IMG/VR virus record: IMGVR_UViG_2713896902_000005
Location: 1-36,473 of that record
DNA from: a virus
Lineage: Duplodnaviria > Heunggongvirae > Uroviricota > Caudoviricetes
DNA length: 36,473 nt
Strand: one strand, 5' to 3'
Of the stretch, positions 2,356-35,503 are shown in pieces; position 1 is the stretch's first letter; the number at the start of each line of letters is the position of its first letter. The notes beneath the pieces are model-generated. The model had not been told where the DNA came from. It was given only the letters and a program-made list of their open reading frames with translations, and did not search any database. Made by a program: the position numbers and the translations under genes.

Positions 2356-2900
2356 GCCTCCATCGCTTTATCAGGTTTGTCGGTGTTACTGCCCTGACCG
2401 TTCTCTCTGTGACGATGCCCGTTATAGGCAAGCCGCATCGCTGACATGGTGGTACCGCCGGAGTCGCACAGGTCTTTCACCTGTCCGGTCACTTCAAGGT
2501 CCATTTCAAAACGTGCTTCAGGTGCATTGCGAAACGTGATCGTTTTACCTGCACCGTCCACCACGATCCCCTCCCGGGTCAGCGTCACGGACTGCCCCTG
2601 ATCGTCATAGACAGCCACCTCACCCGTCTGCAGCCCTTTCAGGCGGTAGCGCCGGTCCGACACCGTAACAACCACCGCATGAGAACGGTCGCCATCAGGA
2701 AACAACACCACCGCTTCCGCACCGCTGTTTGCCCTTGCGGTAAAACCGTAGGGTTCAAGATGTTCAACCCCGGCTTTGGGTTCACCGGCAATCAGGGACA
2801 CATCCACGGTCTGACATTTCGTGGCGGCACTGATGCTTTTCACCACTGCCCGCCCAATCAGGCCGAGGAGTTGTCGCTGCATGGCTTCAATCGTACTCAT
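2352..2900 (-). CDS. Baseplate assembly protein V / spike (Mu gp45-like)
   Basis: 182 aa; position and size; 4-bp start/stop overlap with neighbours. Confidence 0.6.
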   Translation of the reverse strand: MSTIEAMQRQLLGLIGRAVVKSISAATKCQTVDVSLIAGEPKAGVEHLEPYGFTARANSGAEAVVLFPDGDRSHAVVVTVSDRRYRLKGLQTGEVAVYDDQGQSVTLTREGIVVDGAGKTITFRNAPEARFEMDLEVTGQVKDLCDSGGTTMSAMRLAYNGHRHRENGQGSNTDKPDKAMEA

Positions 2901-24108: not shown

Positions 24109-24484
24109 CCGCCGTTTTCTCGTACTTACTGATAGTGATCTCGACCTTCCCTTCCGGGATAACCGGTCCCCACTCCACCAGCATTCTTTTCACCTGACTG
24201 TCGTCTTCCCACACCCCCGCGTGGGTCAGGGCGTCAAACAGCGCCTTGTTATAGTTGTCCAGATCGCGGATCCGGTTATCCGGAGGAAACAACACGATCT
24301 CCACTGAAGCAGGTGCCGACGTTGGTTTTGGCAGACGACGTAACTGCTCAACTATTGCTGCACACGCCGCGCTCTGGAATTTGCGCCCCGCCGCGCTTAT
24401 CAGGCTCTTACCTGCAAACGCCCCTTTGTTGGGGTGTCGCCAGTACGTGTTCACGCTGGGCGGAAAAGGCAGTATTAGCTTCAT
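24095..24484 (-). CDS. rusA: Holliday junction resolvase RusA
   Basis: 129 aa; RusA-like motifs (PPSVNTYWRH..., RDLDNYNKALFDALT). Confidence 0.8.
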   Translation of the reverse strand: MKLILPFPPSVNTYWRHPNKGAFAGKSLISAAGRKFQSAACAAIVEQLRRLPKPTSAPASVEIVLFPPDNRIRDLDNYNKALFDALTHAGVWEDDSQVKRMLVEWGPVIPEGKVEITISKYEKTAGAAA

Positions 24485-24807
24485 ACTTTCAGCTCCCTCT
24501 CATGTAACCAGTGGGCTACACGCAGCCTGGCGTTTTCCTCACCGGCAAGCAGTGCGCGGATAATCCCGACCGCCTCGCTGTCGTCGTCCTTCACCGCGGT
24601 ATGAAGAGTGATACCCCGGGCCACGCCACGCTTTATCGTGATGACGCCTTTTTTCTCCAGTGCGCGAAGATGCTCCACCGCTGCATTCACTGAACGGTAT
24701 CCCAGCATGGTTGCCACCTCCTGATTGGTTGGCGGGAAGCCACGTTCTTTCTGGTAAGAAATCAGCATATCCAGCACCTGCTGCTGGCATTGAGTTAACG
24801 TCGTCAT
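24481..24807 (-). CDS. LexA N-terminal DNA-binding domain protein lacking the S24 peptidase domain
   Basis: 108 aa; aligns with the LexA winged-helix pattern (LT.CQQQVLD..., GFPPT..E.A..LGYRS.NAA.EHL.AL.KKGVI); too short for a protease domain. Confidence 0.6.
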   Translation of the reverse strand: MTTLTQCQQQVLDMLISYQKERGFPPTNQEVATMLGYRSVNAAVEHLRALEKKGVITIKRGVARGITLHTAVKDDDSEAVGIIRALLAGEENARLRVAHWLHERELKV

Positions 24808-25490
24808 GCCGCCATCTCCCTGACCAGTTTTTCCGCCTGCTGGCGAACCTGCACCAGAAAGGCTTCACCACATGCCTCAAGTTCATCGCGCCCGATGTAG
24901 CTGATTGCCGGTCCCTTCCAGGTCTTGTCGAAAACAGCAATAGCACCAGCGAAGAAAGCGCCTGTCGGCACCTGCTTCTCATCCTTCGGGATAAACCAGG
25001 CAGGCAGTTCAAAACCAATACGCCCGCGAATAAAAGCAATATGGTCCGCATCTTCCGGCCACCACACTTCGCTGGTGGCAGCTTTGATCAGGAAAACATA
25101 GCGCCCGCCCTTATCACGCATGGCACTGGCATGTTTCATGATGTAACGCATGCCGGTGATGTATTGCCCCTCATGCTGACTGGCGCGGCTGTATGGGGGA
25201 TTACCAAAGGCAGCACCTTTAAGCTCCGCAAGACGTTCTGACCAGTCATGCGCCAGCGCGTTATCTTCCGCCGTGTAATACGCGGCACATTTGGCGTTAT
25301 CACCGTCAGTGAACAGATCCAGAACAAACGGGCCAAACAGGGTGTTAATTCCCCAGAAAATGTTGTCCGGCGTGCGCCACTGATCGCCCACTTCCTTCAG
25401 TTCATGGGCTGGTTTGTTCCGCAGTTCCACCAGCGCCTGGCAATATTTATTACTCATTAAGCCCCCACGTAATTCCCTGACAGATACCAC
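24804..25490 (-). CDS. Phage DNA N6-adenine methyltransferase (Dam-like)
   Basis: 228 aa with the NPPY catalytic motif (FGNPPY). Confidence 0.8.
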   Translation of the reverse strand: MVSVRELRGGLMSNKYCQALVELRNKPAHELKEVGDQWRTPDNIFWGINTLFGPFVLDLFTDGDNAKCAAYYTAEDNALAHDWSERLAELKGAAFGNPPYSRASQHEGQYITGMRYIMKHASAMRDKGGRYVFLIKAATSEVWWPEDADHIAFIRGRIGFELPAWFIPKDEKQVPTGAFFAGAIAVFDKTWKGPAISYIGRDELEACGEAFLVQVRQQAEKLVREMAA

Positions 25491-25951
25491 TCTTCACCCG
25501 ATGCAGCGCGCTTGCTGCTTTTCCGTAAGCACCGCTCACGGCGCGCCAGAAAATTGTTTCGTTCTGACTGGGAGTGGCTTTCACGGAATGCCGCCATCCA
25601 CACGGTTGCAGCACGACGGTATAAGCCCCTGGACTCCAGTTCTTCAGCCTGGCGGGTCAGGCACAAAATCACCCGGGGATCGTTAGTGCCGACATAGAAA
25701 TTACGCACAGGTTTGGTTTCACGAACTGGTTGCGGTTCCGGCTCCTGCGCTCTCTCAGTCAGGCGCGGGAAATGTCTGCGTGTATCTCCTTCACAACGGT
25801 GAGCCACACGCCCACTCTGACGTAACTTGCTTGCAGACTGCAGAACGCGCTGCCGTGAGTAACCTGCAAAAGCATCCGCAATGTCTCCGGAAGTACACCC
25901 CGGATGGGCTTCAATGAATTTCTGAACTTCATTCAAAAGACTCATAATCAC
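25457..25951 (-). CDS. Putative transcriptional regulator with PerC-like C-terminal region
   Basis: 164 aa; C-terminal AEELESRGLYRRAATVWM resembles the PerC motif as recalled. Confidence 0.4.
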   Translation of the reverse strand: MIMSLLNEVQKFIEAHPGCTSGDIADAFAGYSRQRVLQSASKLRQSGRVAHRCEGDTRRHFPRLTERAQEPEPQPVRETKPVRNFYVGTNDPRVILCLTRQAEELESRGLYRRAATVWMAAFRESHSQSERNNFLARRERCLRKSSKRAASGEEWYLSGNYVGA

Positions 25952-26889
25952 CCCCTGAATCCTGCCGGGATCTGGCTGTAGTCCACGTTGTCGTAACTGG
26001 ATTTGAAGTACGGGTCTTCGCGTTTTTCGGTGTACGTGCTTACGGACGGCGATAAGCGCAGGGAAAGCTCATCCCATTTTTCCCGCAGCTTCGACGGGCT
26101 GAGCACGTTACGGCACCAGAACGGATCGCGGCTGACGCGGCTGTACATCTCGCAGATTTGTTTATGAGTACGCCCATCCTGTACACACATCAGGCGAATT
26201 TCGTTTGCCCAGGCTGTCCAGTTCGGTTCTTTAGGACGTACCACTTCGCCGTCACATTCGGCGGCCTGCTCGTACAGAGCGATGATTTTTTTCCAGAGCC
26301 ACTGTGCGCAGGTCAAATCATCCTGCGTTCCCCACTGGCGCTTTTTAGGGCTGAATACAACCGCATCAGGATGGCGAGTTAAAAACTCTTGTTCAGCCGT
26401 CTGCGTGTCCGGTTGCGAAGCGTCCGGACGAGAAGTTTTTTTATCTGACGGATCATGTTTTGATTTTACTGACGGATCCCCGCCAGATTCTGACGGGTGA
26501 AAACCCGCTTTTTTGCCAGATTTCGACGCATCAAATTTTGACTGGTCAGATTTTGATGCGTCAGATTTTGACGGGTCAGAATCTGACAGTTGAGAAAATG
26601 CCGCTGCCTGAAGCTTCGCAACGTTAAGCTGATAAACATTCGACGCATTGCGGTTACCCTGGCGACGCGCCTTACGCGTTAACCAGCCTTCTGCTTCCAG
26701 CCGTGCGATAGCCGTTCTGACGGTGCTCATCCCCGCGCCAATCTGGCGGGCAATGGTTTCAATTGATGGCCAGCACACACCTTCGTCATTACTGAAATCA
26801 GCCAGGCGGGCCATAATTGCCACGCTGGATAACTTCATGCCTGACGCAGCGCAACCATCCCATACATAGCCGGTTAATTTAGTGCTCAT
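25948..26889 (-). CDS. Replication initiator (O-like: N-terminal HTH, repetitive linker, C-terminal domain)
   Basis: 313 aa; N-terminal HTH; linker SDSDPSKSDASKSDQSKFDASKSG encoded by the iteron block; position after cro and the CII-like gene. Confidence 0.65.
   Translation of the reverse strand: MSTKLTGYVWDGCAASGMKLSSVAIMARLADFSNDEGVCWPSIETIARQIGAGMSTVRTAIARLEAEGWLTRKARRQGNRNASNVYQLNVAKLQAAAFSQLSDSDPSKSDASKSDQSKFDASKSGKKAGFHPSESGGDPSVKSKHDPSDKKTSRPDASQPDTQTAEQEFLTRHPDAVVFSPKKRQWGTQDDLTCAQWLWKKIIALYEQAAECDGEVVRPKEPNWTAWANEIRLMCVQDGRTHKQICEMYSRVSRDPFWCRNVLSPSKLREKWDELSLRLSPSVSTYTEKREDPYFKSSYDNVDYSQIPAGFRG
26440..26595. repeat. Iteron array inside the initiator gene (candidate replication origin)
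   Basis: Tandem 15-bp units TCAGATTTTGAYGSG (e.g. 26546-26590) with degenerate copies back to about 26440. Confidence 0.6.
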
Positions 26890-26898
26890 GACCGACCT

Positions 26899-27237
26899 CT
26901 ATTTCCCTGAATTTACGACGAAACTGTTCGAGCGGGCTGAAGCACTCATGCTCATAGCCTTCGCGGAGGTAGATAACCCGTTGTGTTTCCGGTTCCCAAC
27001 GAATGACTCTGACGGGCACTCCGTAGTGATCTTTGAACCAGCGGTTAACTTGTCGCAAAGGACTGTCTCCTTTTGCCGGTTGAAATCACCCACAGCCCAC
27101 TCTGCAAAGCTGTGGGTTACAATTTCCCTGTCACCTGGTACATTCACTGCATAGCAATACTCCACCTTCGCTTTTCCACCCGGTACAGGAAGTGCAATCA
27201 GTTGCGAGCGACGGTAGTGTGTTGTTAAACTGTTCAT
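26899..27237 (-). CDS. Hypothetical protein (uncertain ORF)
   Basis: 112 aa ORF filling the gap between the CII-like and initiator genes; a plus-strand ORF (26882-27154) is an alternative. Confidence 0.25.
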
Positions 27238-27803
27238 GCGTTAGTTTCTCCACAACCAGAAGCAATCGACGCCACGACGCCCGGAGCTGCACACTCGCGG
27301 GCGTCATTACTTTCTGAAATGCAAAAAATTTTGTAGACAAGTGCTGCATGCTCCTGCAGCTTCGAAATTGAGAGATACAGCTCGTCGTTAATTGCTGTCT
27401 TCTCATGCGGTTCCACTACACCGTCTTCGATTGCTGAACGAATCTGTTTTGAATAACTGCCGATCTGTTCAATGACTTCCAGCAGACGCTGGTTAATATC
27501 GGCGTTGTCCACATCCTCGACGTCAGGAAGAGACACAAAGACGCCATTTGCAGACTGCGCCACAGCATCAGCAATGAAGTGAGTGCCACCAGCACGCTGT
27601 AAAACCATTGCCCATCCCAGCGGAAAAATCTGATCGCCATCTGCACGAAGGCGGTTGAATAAAGCGTTCTCTGTTACATCCAGCCAGTCAGCCGCTTCAG
27701 CGTAACCACCCGGCAACGCCGCGATAGTTTTTCTGACAGCTTTCACGTACCACTCAGGCTGTTTTTCTATTTTCCAGTGATGCTTACCCACGATTAGCCT
27801 CAT
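27234..27803 (-). CDS. CII-like / YdaT-like early regulatory protein
   Basis: 189 aa; position immediately downstream of cro. Confidence 0.4.
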
Positions 27804-35071: not shown

Positions 35072-35503
35072 TAAAAACCTTATCTTACAAATAGTTGGTA
35101 ATGATGTTGAATTATTTTTTGTTCTTTATGGCTAATAAGATTACATGAAGGGACAACTTCTGGCCACCTTAGAAAACACTCACTTTAGTAACAAGAGTCA
35201 ATAATATTGTTGACAAATCACAAAAAAACAAACTTATCCAAAATAATCTGGTTTATTACAAAGCCTCTGTGTATAAATCTGTGCATAACATCATTTTTAC
35301 ACACATTTTTTATAAAAATATTTTTTAGCAAAAAATGCTATCTATCTCCGAAACTGCAACCACAAACCATTAATTCCAAATGAAACTATTTTAAAATAAA
35401 TAGTAAGACAGTAACAGGACAGAAAAAGTTCCGCAAAAGAGCCGCGTGTAAAATCAACAATATTTGGCTATTTAAATTCAATGAATTACATAACTATGGA
35501 CAC

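Follow-up and report, generated by a model that had tools for sequence, protein, structure and literature searches.

A probable replication origin within the initiator gene of SfII/SfIV/CPS-53-type lambdoid prophages

The initiator gene and its neighbourhood

The minus strand of the window (the whole 36.5-kb stretch of viral DNA analysed here) encodes a 313 amino acid protein that matches the PHROG 391 family 'replication initiation O-like' with an E-value of 1e-134 (Table 1). Its gene is 97–98% identical at the nucleotide level to those of the functional phages SfII and SfIV. By these similarities the protein is an initiator of the SfII/SfIV/CPS-53 type, the intact form of the yfdO relic of Escherichia coli K-12.

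The protein comprises two domains joined by a linker. The N-terminal domain is modelled by AlphaFold2 as H-H-H-H-beta-wing-beta (pLDDT 64–88), with amino acids 54–66 forming the recognition helix (STVR58TAI) and amino acids 70–88 the wing (RRQGNRNASN). The best Foldseek matches to this domain are dimeric winged-helix regulators of the MarR/ArsR type, and comparison of the initiator with solved structures returned weak MarR-type winged-helix matches only. BLASTP finds no N-terminal similarity to lambda O, and the initiator does not match Phage_rep_O (PF04492), which lambda O itself matches at 6e-36; nor is a Rep_3-type domain found by Pfam. BLASTP aligns the protein with lambda O across amino acids 70–277 (E 2e-25, 29% identity), the conserved blocks being C-terminal, from around amino acid 167, and with phi80 gp15 across the C-terminal part (amino acids 167–278, E 2e-25). 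These alignments make the C-terminal domain a true homologue of that of lambda O. The source name, 'Replication protein 15', might suggest a protein related to phi80 gp15 throughout; this was rejected, only the C-terminal domain being related.

The initiator gene is followed by a PerC-like gene (yfdN), a gene for a Dam-type methyltransferase and a LexA-like gene. The methyltransferase gene is in the same operon, two genes downstream of the initiator. No helicase-loader or helicase gene (P, gp14, DnaC, DnaB or gp12-like) was found directly downstream of the initiator.

Table 1 Features of the initiator locus (positions in the window)
Feature	Position	Strand	Details
Replication initiator gene, 313 aa	25948-26889	-	ORF; SfII/SfIV 'primosomal protein / O-like'
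N-terminal winged-helix DNA-binding domain, aa 1-101	26587-26889	-	Pfam HTH_36, E 4e-11
Linker, aa 102-159, predicted disordered, houses the DNA element	26413-26586	-	AlphaFold2 pLDDT <50, no secondary structure
C-terminal domain, aa 162-313	25951-26406	-	lambda O / phi80 gp15 C-terminal homology; pLDDT 87-97
Iteron 1	26575-26587		GTCAGAATCTGAC on + strand, perfect 13-bp palindrome
Iteron 2	26560-26572		GTCAGATTTTGAC on + strand
Iteron 3	26545-26557		GTCAGATTTTGAT on + strand
Iteron 4	26530-26542		ATCAAATTTTGAC on + strand
Iteron 5, degenerate	26515-26527		GCCAGATTTCGAC on + strand
Spacer, iteron 5 to iteron 6	26495-26514		5' part differs between homologues in sequence and in length; GGTTTTSACCCG conserved
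Iteron 6, isolated	26482-26494		GCCAGATTCTGAC on + strand; synonymous sites fixed, 55 lineages
GATC box 1	26469-26478		coding strand GATCCGTCAG; GATC in 55/55 lineages
GATC box 2	26445-26454		GATCCGTCAG on coding strand; 24 bp away from box 1; GATC in 47/55 lineages
Candidate DNA-unwinding element	26431-26472		AT maximum of the gene over 40 nt, 72.5% AT vs 47.5% for the whole gene
Prophage Dam-type N6-adenine methyltransferase	24804-25490	-	Pfam Dam, E 1e-45

An in-frame array of palindromic repeats

The array, at 26482–26587, consists of six versions of a 13-bp palindrome (coding strand: RTCARAWTCTGAY); five abut with a period of 15 bp, and the sixth is separate, 33 bp beyond the others. Together they span codons 101–137 of 313, between the parts of the gene that encode the DNA-binding and C-terminal domains. 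The preliminary description had claimed at least three tandem 15-bp units with degenerate neighbours inside the initiator ORF, encoding a linker rich in serine, aspartate and lysine. The units were found where it had placed them: its literal consensus, GTCAGATTTTGAYGS, is exact in two (26545–26559 and 26560–26574), the neighbours being degenerate versions, and the units, read from the minus strand, fall in frame at codons 101–125 of the 313 amino acid ORF, with a peptide (x-S-K-S-D) of the composition it had given.

The description had also proposed that the repeats be counted and aligned computationally. Tandem Repeats Finder reports 26517–26580 with a period of 15, 4.3 copies and 77% matches (85% when the array is read at a period of 30), and a repeat search returns six in-register copies in 26481–26596 at spacings of 33, 15, 15, 15 and 15. 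Matches to the motif TCARAWTCTGAC with at most one mismatch number eight in the window, every one inside 26482–26587; shuffled sequence is expected to hold 0.68, and eight were reached in none of 100 shuffles. Across 305 units the consensus RTCARAWTCTGAY has dyad symmetry at six of seven position pairs. Copy number is polymorphic, ranging from two to nine among homologues.

On its C-terminal side the array adjoins the AT maximum of the initiator gene, a candidate unwinding element that contains a run of seven thymines (26436–26442). An AT-rich unwinding stretch beside the array had been named as a further thing to look for; an AT-rich stretch is present, at only around 73% AT, and is weaker than that of lambda. 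The stretch averages 68.5% AT across 55 lineages, against 47.5% for the gene. No convincing DnaA boxes or IHF sites were found near the array.

Selection on the DNA

Codon statistics were compiled from 305 repeat units in 55 lineages sharing less than 95% nucleotide identity, with the rest of the same genes as background. The preliminary description would have been undermined by homologous initiators that lack the repeats; the array is kept in all 55 of the diverged Enterobacterales homologues that have the HTH_36-type DNA-binding domain of this initiator. Codon choice within the units is highly skewed. The first serine is TCA in 258 of 285 cases (background 17%) and the second TCT in 177 of 229 (background 9%), whilst lysine is always AAA (180/180, background 63%), asparagine always AAT (27/27, background 33%) and aspartate GAC in 163 of 203 cases (background 46%). 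Asp-Pro is encoded by GAC-CCN in the array (43/43) and by GAT-CCR at the two GATC boxes (101/101).

The constraint does not end with the repeats. In the non-repeated 70 bp after the array the commonest codon has a mean share of 0.93, compared with 0.53 across 66 DNA-binding-domain columns (Mann-Whitney p = 2e-9), and third positions carry 1.54 bits of information, compared with 0.63 bits in that domain. Across the 55 homologues, synonymous sites are near-frozen in the array and just after it, and saturated in the adjacent DNA-binding domain. Since invariant and variable positions are interspersed, the post-array constraint is attributed to selection and recent horizontal spread of the segment is ruled out; such spread is also countered by the range of lineages, from Escherichia to Proteus, Providencia, Yersinia and Pantoea. 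The codon data indicate that the array is preserved as DNA beyond the needs of the protein.

Two overlapping ORFs (26466–26648, minus strand; 26460–26627, plus strand) were considered and rejected. Both are stop-free solely through the repeat, the ATG of the minus-strand ORF needs Asn84 to be encoded by AAT but the codon is AAC in 55% of lineages, and the mirror-image base changes described below would be left unexplained.

Repeats and DNA-binding domain

Comparison with other phages links the repeats to one half of the protein. Phage phiNP has the same N-terminal domain and 15-bp repeats with a different C-terminal domain, whereas phage mEp460_4F5 combines the same C-terminal domain with a different N-terminal domain and with 23-bp repeats of another kind. 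The mosaic breakpoints relative to other phages lie at approximately 26411–26444. As read from these mosaics, the repeats are coupled to the N-terminal DNA-binding domain and not to the C-terminal domain. More distant HTH_36 initiators have repeats of their own directly after the part that encodes the DNA-binding domain.

Three subfamilies, each of which occurs in E. coli prophages, differ at aligned position 58 of the recognition helix. In the R58 subfamily, to which the window belongs, the unit is R-TCA-RAW-TCT-GA-Y. The I58 unit is T-YCA-RAW-TCT-GR-A and the unit of the Rac-like K58 subfamily V-TCA-AMN-KTT-GA-Y (array sequences TYCAGAWTCTGRA and TCAACNGTTGA, respectively). With both of these sets dereplicated to distinct sequences only, position 3 is T in 122 of 125 I58 units and position 15 is A in 125 of 125; in K58 units, position 7 is A in 131 of 131 and position 11 is T in 129 of 131. 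Each of the base changes between subfamilies is mirrored in the other half-site, preserving dyad symmetry, and the co-variation of initiator and repeat is underlain by about two evolutionary transitions.

SrsR and the K-12 relic

Binding to these repeats has been demonstrated for one protein only, the host regulator SrsR (YgfI), in K-12 (PMC9181523). The four published SrsR boxes are iterons 1–4 of the K-12 relic copy, in the yfdO/yfdP 'spacer' of the cryptic prophage CPS-53, and the window matches the footprinted 11-bp boxes (TCAGATTTTGC). In K-12 the array is annotated as intergenic, whereas in the window the initiator gene around it is intact. The K-12 initiator has lost its first ~77 codons and it is for this reason that the array there was annotated as intergenic and read as a promoter-proximal regulator site; the SrsR paper makes no mention of iterons or of an origin (PMC9181523). 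SrsR and the DNA-binding domain of the initiator have no similarity, ruling out SrsR as a relative of that domain. SrsR orthologues are named in Escherichia, Citrobacter, Kosakonia, Yersinia, Hafnia and Sodalis.

Alternative explanations

Could the array be primarily a platform for the LysR-type SrsR, a transcriptional control region rather than an origin, tying expression of downstream prophage genes to the stationary-phase or stress state of the host? The K-12 relic array, which differs from the window by one to three bases, gives the strongest SrsR gSELEX peak (1206, compared with 150–290 at the other nine sites) and a 66-bp DNase I footprint over boxes TCAaATTTTGa, TCAGATTTTGa, TCAGATTTTGa and TCAGAgTcTGa, which map between the annotated yfdO and yfdP in MG1655; yfdO mRNA is also lower in an srsR deletion and higher when SrsR is overexpressed (PMC9181523). 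In two complete Proteus mirabilis chromosomes, however, the array is present together with the initiator and the pair of GATC boxes, but no SrsR homologue is found (tblastn, E <= 1e-30), and SrsR therefore cannot account for the conservation of the array. Neither can a single host factor explain three array specificities that, within E. coli prophages, track the DNA-binding domain of the phage protein. The constrained DNA reaches ~90 bp past the footprint, which itself took 10–40 µM protein (PMC9181523), and no sigma-70-like promoter was found in 25900–27300, which also disposes of an internal promoter. A primary role as an SrsR platform is accordingly judged rather unlikely. SrsR binding may instead be a secondary, E. 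coli-specific layer on the array. That the array has a dual use, as cognate phage origin and as high-affinity SrsR platform in those hosts that possess SrsR, is a tentative proposal that we consider possible. Were it true, stationary-phase and stress signalling in the host would be wired into the firing or silencing of the prophage origin, and the published 'SrsR box' would be a fossil phage iteron.

Two further explanations dispense with regulator and origin alike. Slippage could have generated a low-complexity protein linker whose DNA periodicity is a mere by-product, as in-frame units, close alleles that vary by multiples of five amino acids (from 282 to 332) and a disordered, Ser/Asp/Lys-rich peptide would lead one to expect, but this is scarcely credible when the choice of synonymous codon is fixed in genera between which the flanking domain is synonymously saturated and when the non-repeated segment after the array is under the same constraint. 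The third base of the variable 'x' residue is kept purine (just 9 of the 305 units have T), the centre base is limited to A or T, whether K, E, N or D is encoded, and the half-site changes between subfamilies are dyad-symmetric; a protein-only repeat is contradicted by these codon statistics. The palindromes might otherwise serve as RNA or ssDNA structure, or as another cis site for partition, packaging or handcuffing. As ssDNA, 26430–26600 folds far better than shuffled sequence (z = -4.85), and mirror-image changes would preserve hairpin stems too. This is nevertheless quite improbable, given that an A/C mismatch would interrupt the stem of the commonest unit, TCAAAATCTGAC, that a 13-nt palindrome allows at best 5 bp and a triloop, that the changes in the repeats track the recognition helix of the protein and that the position of the array, between the domain-coding parts and by an AT-rich GATC stretch, matches that of the lambda and phi80 origins. 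There is no Rfam match in the whole window, ruling out a known RNA family. A terminator-like antisense hairpin at 26494–26507 is probably due to chance, as it lies in the spacer that varies among homologues.

A probable origin and how it might work

The weight of this evidence points to 26431–26587, inside the linker-coding part of the initiator gene, as the probable replication origin of the SfII/SfIV/CPS-53-type lambdoid prophage. Those computational predictions of the iteron-origin reading that were tested were all borne out and support it. We infer that dimers of the N-terminal winged-helix domain bind the six dyad-symmetric 13-bp iterons (RTCARAWTCTGAY). With iterons abutting at a 15-bp period, neighbours would lie on approximately opposite faces of the helix, every second one being in phase. 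The resulting nucleoprotein complex would destabilise the adjoining 40-bp AT-rich stretch with its two GATC boxes, and the lambda-O-like C-terminal domain would recruit the replicative helicase, presumably through host DnaC–DnaB, as the phage has no P, DnaC or DnaB gene after the initiator. The GATC pair may allow Dam methylation, by host or phage-encoded enzyme, and SeqA to time initiation.

Literature searches revealed no described origin in SfII, SfIV, SfV or CPS-53 and, in the searchable literature, no experimental origin mapping or initiator–DNA binding for this initiator family. The origin and iterons go unmentioned in the SfIV genome paper, and a paper on replication of a 'non-lambdoid Stx phage' contains no iteron analysis. 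A 37.7-kb circular 'plasmid' record that includes the module turned out to be a phage genome lacking any plasmid replicon type, and is compatible with autonomous replication without being proof of it.

The module is widespread. Of 5426 complete E. coli genomes, 2724 have a match to the gene region (with at least 80% coverage in 1576), and the initiator family, which takes in the Shigella serotype-converting phages SfII and SfIV, forms 2370 protein clusters at 90% identity. The likely origin and specificity determinants are located here for one of the commonest replication modules of Enterobacterales prophages. The R58, I58 and K58 subfamilies, with their matching dyad changes, offer a natural specificity-swap series for studying how winged-helix initiators read DNA, and the in-frame iteron losses seen in many alleles are a possible marker of replication-defective prophages. 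Repeats published as the top SrsR site are here read as, most likely, origin repeats. If, as seems most likely from sequence comparison, a relic phage origin underlies the strongest SrsR site of E. coli K-12, both the consensus and the regulon assigned to SrsR merit re-examination, and a testable link between host and prophage is raised.

Comparison with known origins

The array is most likely an origin of the lambda type, lying within the gene of its own initiator, with an HTH_36 domain and 15-bp spacing. The preliminary description had seen a mirror of lambda; this is true of the iterons inside the initiator gene but not of the N-terminal domain, which is HTH_36 rather than Phage_rep_O. In lambda and phi80, checked as positive controls, the annotated iterons likewise fall midway along the initiator gene, within the linker part, and in P22 and phage L repeats have the same kind of placement in gene 18 (PMC8022706). 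As in lambda-type origins, each iteron in the window is dyad-symmetric, the AT-rich stretch is on the C-terminal side of the iterons, and N-terminal domain and iterons form a single exchangeable specificity module in phage mosaics. The dimensions differ, however. Iterons are 18 bp at 20–24 bp in lambda and 15–16 bp at 20–21 bp in phi80, compared with 13 bp at 15 bp in the window; the period in distant relatives is also in the 20–24 bp range. Unlike lambda and phi80, the window has five plus one copies followed by two conserved GATC boxes, and lacks a P, gp14, DnaC or DnaB gene after the initiator. The modest AT content, the divergent period and the missing loader gene weigh against the origin reading. 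The lambda O-some is phased and wraps DNA, whereas the 15-bp palindromes of the window would place successive putative dimers on alternate faces.

Iteron plasmids such as P1 (oriR), F, R6K, pSC101 and RK2, with initiators of the RepA/pi type, also have repeats beside an AT-rich, GATC-bearing unwinding region, and P1 oriR requires Dam methylation. Plasmid iterons are 17–22 bp in length, phased at ~22 bp and located outside the rep gene; the Rep proteins that bind them are WH1-WH2 monomers. The window differs from these replicons in having no Rep_3 domain, a 15-bp period and an array within the ORF.

The Rac-prophage module (YdaS, YdaT, HTH_36 initiator and DnaC-like loader) differs from the window in having K at aligned position 58, the iteron TCAAMNKTTGAY and, directly after the initiator, a DnaC-like (IstB_IS21) gene that the window lacks. 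Its initiator has the same architecture, with 59% identity overall, and shares with that of the window an in-frame array with a 15-bp period, two GATC boxes and a lambda-O-like C-terminal domain.

The repeat array and its gene

By its anatomy, the element at 26.5 kb is a candidate origin of the lambda type lying within the initiator gene. The preliminary description had placed tandem 15-bp units inside an O-like initiator ORF, and this is borne out both by repeat searches and by a motif count. The array detected by Tandem Repeats Finder matches better at period 30 than at period 15 (85% vs 77% matches), and a count with find_repeats gives six in-register copies spanning 26481-26596. Allowing at most one mismatch, the motif TCARAWTCTGAC is found eight times in 36.5 kb, always within 26482-26587, where 0.68 matches are expected by shuffling and none of 100 shuffles reaches eight. 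Read on the coding strand, the in-frame unit is nnG TCA AAA TCT GAC (x-S-K-S-D), occupying codons 101-125, with the sixth copy at codons 132-136. The terminator-like hairpin and T run between iterons 5 and 6, antisense to the initiator, probably arose by chance, as the spacer is variable among homologues. Two other short tandem repeats detected by Tandem Repeats Finder are unrelated to the array.

Features of the candidate origin and other elements of the window
Feature	Position	Strand	Details
Initiator ORF, 313 aa	25948-26889	minus	ORF call
112-aa ORF	26899-27237	minus	PHROG 1170, E 4e-70; first 63 aa alone match PHROG 20047
59-aa DUF4222 ORF	26879-27058	minus	Pfam E 9e-19
Dam-type methyltransferase	24804-25490	minus	prophage's own
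Period-15 array	26517-26580		4.3 copies
Iteron 1 (13-mer)	26575-26587	plus	GTCAGAATCTGAC
Iteron 2 (13-mer)	26560-26572	plus	GTCAGATTTTGAC
Iteron 3 (13-mer)	26545-26557	plus	GTCAGATTTTGAT
Iteron 4 (13-mer)	26530-26542	plus	ATCAAATTTTGAC
Iteron 5 (13-mer)	26515-26527	plus	GCCAGATTTCGAC
Iteron 6 (13-mer)	26482-26494	plus	GCCAGATTCTGAC
Hairpin, then T run	26494-26507	plus	CGGGTGAAAACCCG CTTTTTT
GATC box 1	26469-26478		
GATC box 2	26445-26454		
Mosaic junctions	~26411-26444		just beyond GATC box 2
Short tandem repeat	2492-2538		23-bp unit x 2
Short tandem repeat	35305-35333		15-bp AT-rich unit x 1.9

The initiator matches PHROG 391 ('replication initiation O-like', E 1e-134) and its gene is 97-98% identical to its counterparts in the functional Shigella phages SfII and SfIV; used as a query, the gene is matched in 2724 of 5426 complete E. 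coli genomes, with >=80% coverage in 1576. AlphaFold2 modelling from a 43-sequence alignment gives an N-terminal winged helix (residues 1-101; Pfam HTH_36, E 4e-11), closest in Foldseek searches to MarR/ArsR-type dimeric winged-helix regulators, and a helical C-terminal domain (residues 162-283, pLDDT 87-97). Residues 102-159 between them are predicted to be without structure (pLDDT <50), and it is precisely in their codons that the DNA element lies. From around residue 167, the protein is homologous to the C-terminal domain of lambda O (BLASTP, E 2e-25, alignment aa 70-277) and to that of phi80 gp15 (E 2e-25, aa 167-278). BLASTP detects no relation of the N-terminal domain to either protein, and Phage_rep_O is matched by lambda O and not by the initiator. 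Genes in the operon run cI / cro, cII-like, small ORFs, initiator, PerC-like yfdN, Dam methylase, LexA-like, RusA ... Q. On the minus strand at 26879-27237, two ORFs in different frames, each with family support, overlap by 160 nt; phage records annotate the 112-aa ORF and RefSeq the 59-aa ORF.

Selection on DNA within a coding sequence

A homologue scan with residues 1-98 as query and one genome per species identified 80 loci, ranging from Escherichia to Proteus, Providencia, Yersinia, Rahnella, Pantoea and Erwinia, which dereplication to <95% nucleotide identity reduced to 55 lineages. Absence of the repeats, looked for among these homologues, was found in none: all 55 lineages keep an in-frame 15-bp array, mostly of 5-7 units. 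Synonymous choices are nearly fixed within the 305 units. The first Ser codon is TCA in 258 of 285 units and the second TCT in 177 of 229 (17% and 9%, respectively, elsewhere in the same genes), Lys is AAA in 180/180 (63% elsewhere), Asn is AAT in 27/27 (33%), Asp is GAC in 163/203 (46%) and Glu is GAA in 58/58. The variable 'x' codon has a purine at its third base, with T in only 9 of 305 units, and the unit's centre base is A or T regardless of the amino acid. Immediately beyond the array, in 70 bp of non-repeated sequence, the commonest codon has a mean share of 0.93 compared with 0.53 across 66 DNA-binding-domain columns (Mann-Whitney p = 2e-9), where 4-6 codons are used per column; third-position information is 1.54 and 0.63 bits, respectively. 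Because invariant and variable positions are interleaved, this pattern of sequence argues for selection and against recent transfer.

Co-variation of repeats and DNA-binding domain

Mosaic phages and co-variation tie the repeats to the initiator's own DNA-binding domain. Phage phiNP has the N-terminal domain and 15-bp repeats in common with the window and a different C-terminal domain (Phg_2220_C); mEp460_4F5 has the C-terminal domain in common, with another N-terminal domain and 5 or 6 different 23-bp repeats. Three subfamilies, all present in E. coli prophages and named after the recognition-helix residue at aligned position 58, differ in recognition helix, wing and array, the period being constant at 15 bp: R58 (window; STVRTAI / GNRNASN) has the unit R-TCA-RAW-TCT-GA-Y, I58 (STVI.. 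/ GQRS.SN) T-YCA-RAW-TCT-GR-A and K58 (Rac-like; STVKAAI / GGRNESN) V-TCA-AMN-KTT-GA-Y. Position 3 is T in 122/125 and position 15 A in 125/125 I58 units, and position 7 is A in 131/131 and position 11 T in 129/131 K58 units. These changes are all mirrored across half-sites (3 with 15, 4 with 14, 7 with 11, 8 with 10), as would be expected of a specificity-shifted dimer, and the outer G/C pair disappears together with Arg58; the co-variation represents ~2 evolutionary transitions, the I58 and K58 sets being dereplicated to distinct sequences only. More distant HTH_36 initiators have their own repeats, with 21-23 bp periods, directly after the part encoding the DNA-binding domain.

Several alleles (P0062, P0064, P0072, P0073, P0085, P0086 and P0105; 282-332 aa) display in-frame gain or loss of iterons, and some close alleles are down to 1-2 units, such as P0086, found on 128 Salmonella contigs. 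In-frame ori-minus deletions are known in lambda; the iteron loss resembles these and may mark replication-defective prophages. An I58-like relative (IMG/VR UViG_2791354942_000002) has an expanded linker array in which a ~20-aa (60-bp) super-repeat, GLKTEPSEPQGPKSGLSESE, occurs at least three times.

The GATC boxes

Asp-Pro is encoded by GAC-CCN in 43/43 cases inside the array and by GAT-CCR in 101/101 cases at two fixed positions past it, a codon choice that yields two GATC sites, the first kept in 55/55 and the second in 47/55 lineages. The pair beside the iterons (26445-26478) is thus retained through codon choice in nearly all lineages, and GATC density is 27.7 per kb after the array vs 0.27 per kb within it. 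Since the boxes are the same in all three subfamilies, they form an element separate from the iterons. The AT-rich stretch sought next to the array is found here, the 40 nt around the boxes being the gene's AT maximum (72.5% in the window; across lineages, a mean of 68.5% in the GATC stretch vs 47.5% for the gene), although it is modest.

SrsR and the CPS-53 relic

The cryptic prophage CPS-53 of E. coli K-12 keeps the array and the C-terminal ~235 initiator codons (two-thirds of the protein) and has lost the DNA-binding domain; the deletion, which fused the relic to yfdP, also removed the whole immunity region (L085 2501-3226; L211 1113-1218, both K-12 CPS-53). Owing to the short yfdO annotation in MG1655, the array is placed in the yfdO-yfdP 'spacer', which genomic SELEX with the host LysR-type regulator SrsR (YgfI) ranked far above all other genomic sites (intensity 1206 vs 150-290 for others; PMC9181523). 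The 66-bp DNase I footprint comprises four boxes (TCAaATTTTGa, TCAGATTTTGa, TCAGATTTTGa, TCAGAgTcTGa) and yfdO mRNA level is altered by SrsR dosage; no link to iterons or an origin is made in that study (PMC9181523). The four boxes are iterons 4 to 1. SrsR binds the relic array in K-12 and might be taken as the reason for the array's existence. Several enterobacterial genera have named SrsR orthologues. In Proteus mirabilis, however, no SrsR homologue was detected at E <= 1e-30 on either of two complete chromosomes that have the initiator, 4-5 units and the two GATC boxes, and three array specificities within E. coli are not explicable by a single host factor. For these reasons, SrsR binding is most readily understood as a secondary layer or exaptation, not the array's raison d'être.

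A possible mechanism

We propose that initiator dimers sit on the 5+1 palindromes. At 15-bp spacing, neighbouring sites would lie ~154 degrees apart round the helix and alternate sites would be in phase, which would fit the better 30-bp periodicity. The nucleoprotein complex would then melt the AT-rich GATC stretch next to it, and the helicase would be brought in by the C-terminal domain, which is of the lambda O kind. It probably arrives through host DnaC-DnaB, since neither in the window (24481-26889) nor in SfII (L084 5000-10300) is the initiator followed by a P-like, DnaC-like or DnaB-like gene, while Rac-like relatives have an IstB_IS21/DnaC-like gene directly after it (L090 3455-4201). 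Although the C-terminal domain has its homologue in the P-binding domain of lambda O, the genes that come next in the window and SfII are PerC-like yfdN, Dam and LexA-like. Methylation and SeqA control oriC and P1 oriR, and similar control is suggested here by the conservation of the two GATC sites and by the Dam gene that the phage carries in the initiator operon. The Dam-type gene lies two genes downstream of the initiator; SfIV is without one, according to its genome paper.

A circular 'plasmid' record of 37,667 bp (NZ_CP081716.1) consists of a whole SfII/e14-like phage genome with the initiator module (85% identity) and lacks any plasmid replicon type; this is probably an excised or replicating phage caught by assembly. 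PLSDB also has whole chromosomes filed as plasmids, such as P. mirabilis NZ_OL790811 and NZ_OL790812.

Comparison with known origins

No published description of this candidate origin was found in the SfIV genome paper or in the searchable literature, which covers few subscription-journal papers. Its interest lies mainly in the clean DNA-versus-protein selection signal, the natural specificity series R58/I58/K58 and a new interpretation of the SrsR box. The origins of lambda, phi80, P22 and L likewise place the iterons within the initiator gene, combine dyad symmetry with an AT-rich flank, and have an N-terminal domain that forms an exchangeable module with the iterons (PMC8022706 for P22 and L). 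The likeness to the lambda origin in gene O that had been pointed out beforehand thus holds as shared anatomy, whereas the DNA-binding end of lambda O belongs to another family, the iterons of the window are spaced at 15 bp rather than the 20-24 bp of lambda and phi80, and the window initiator stands alone.
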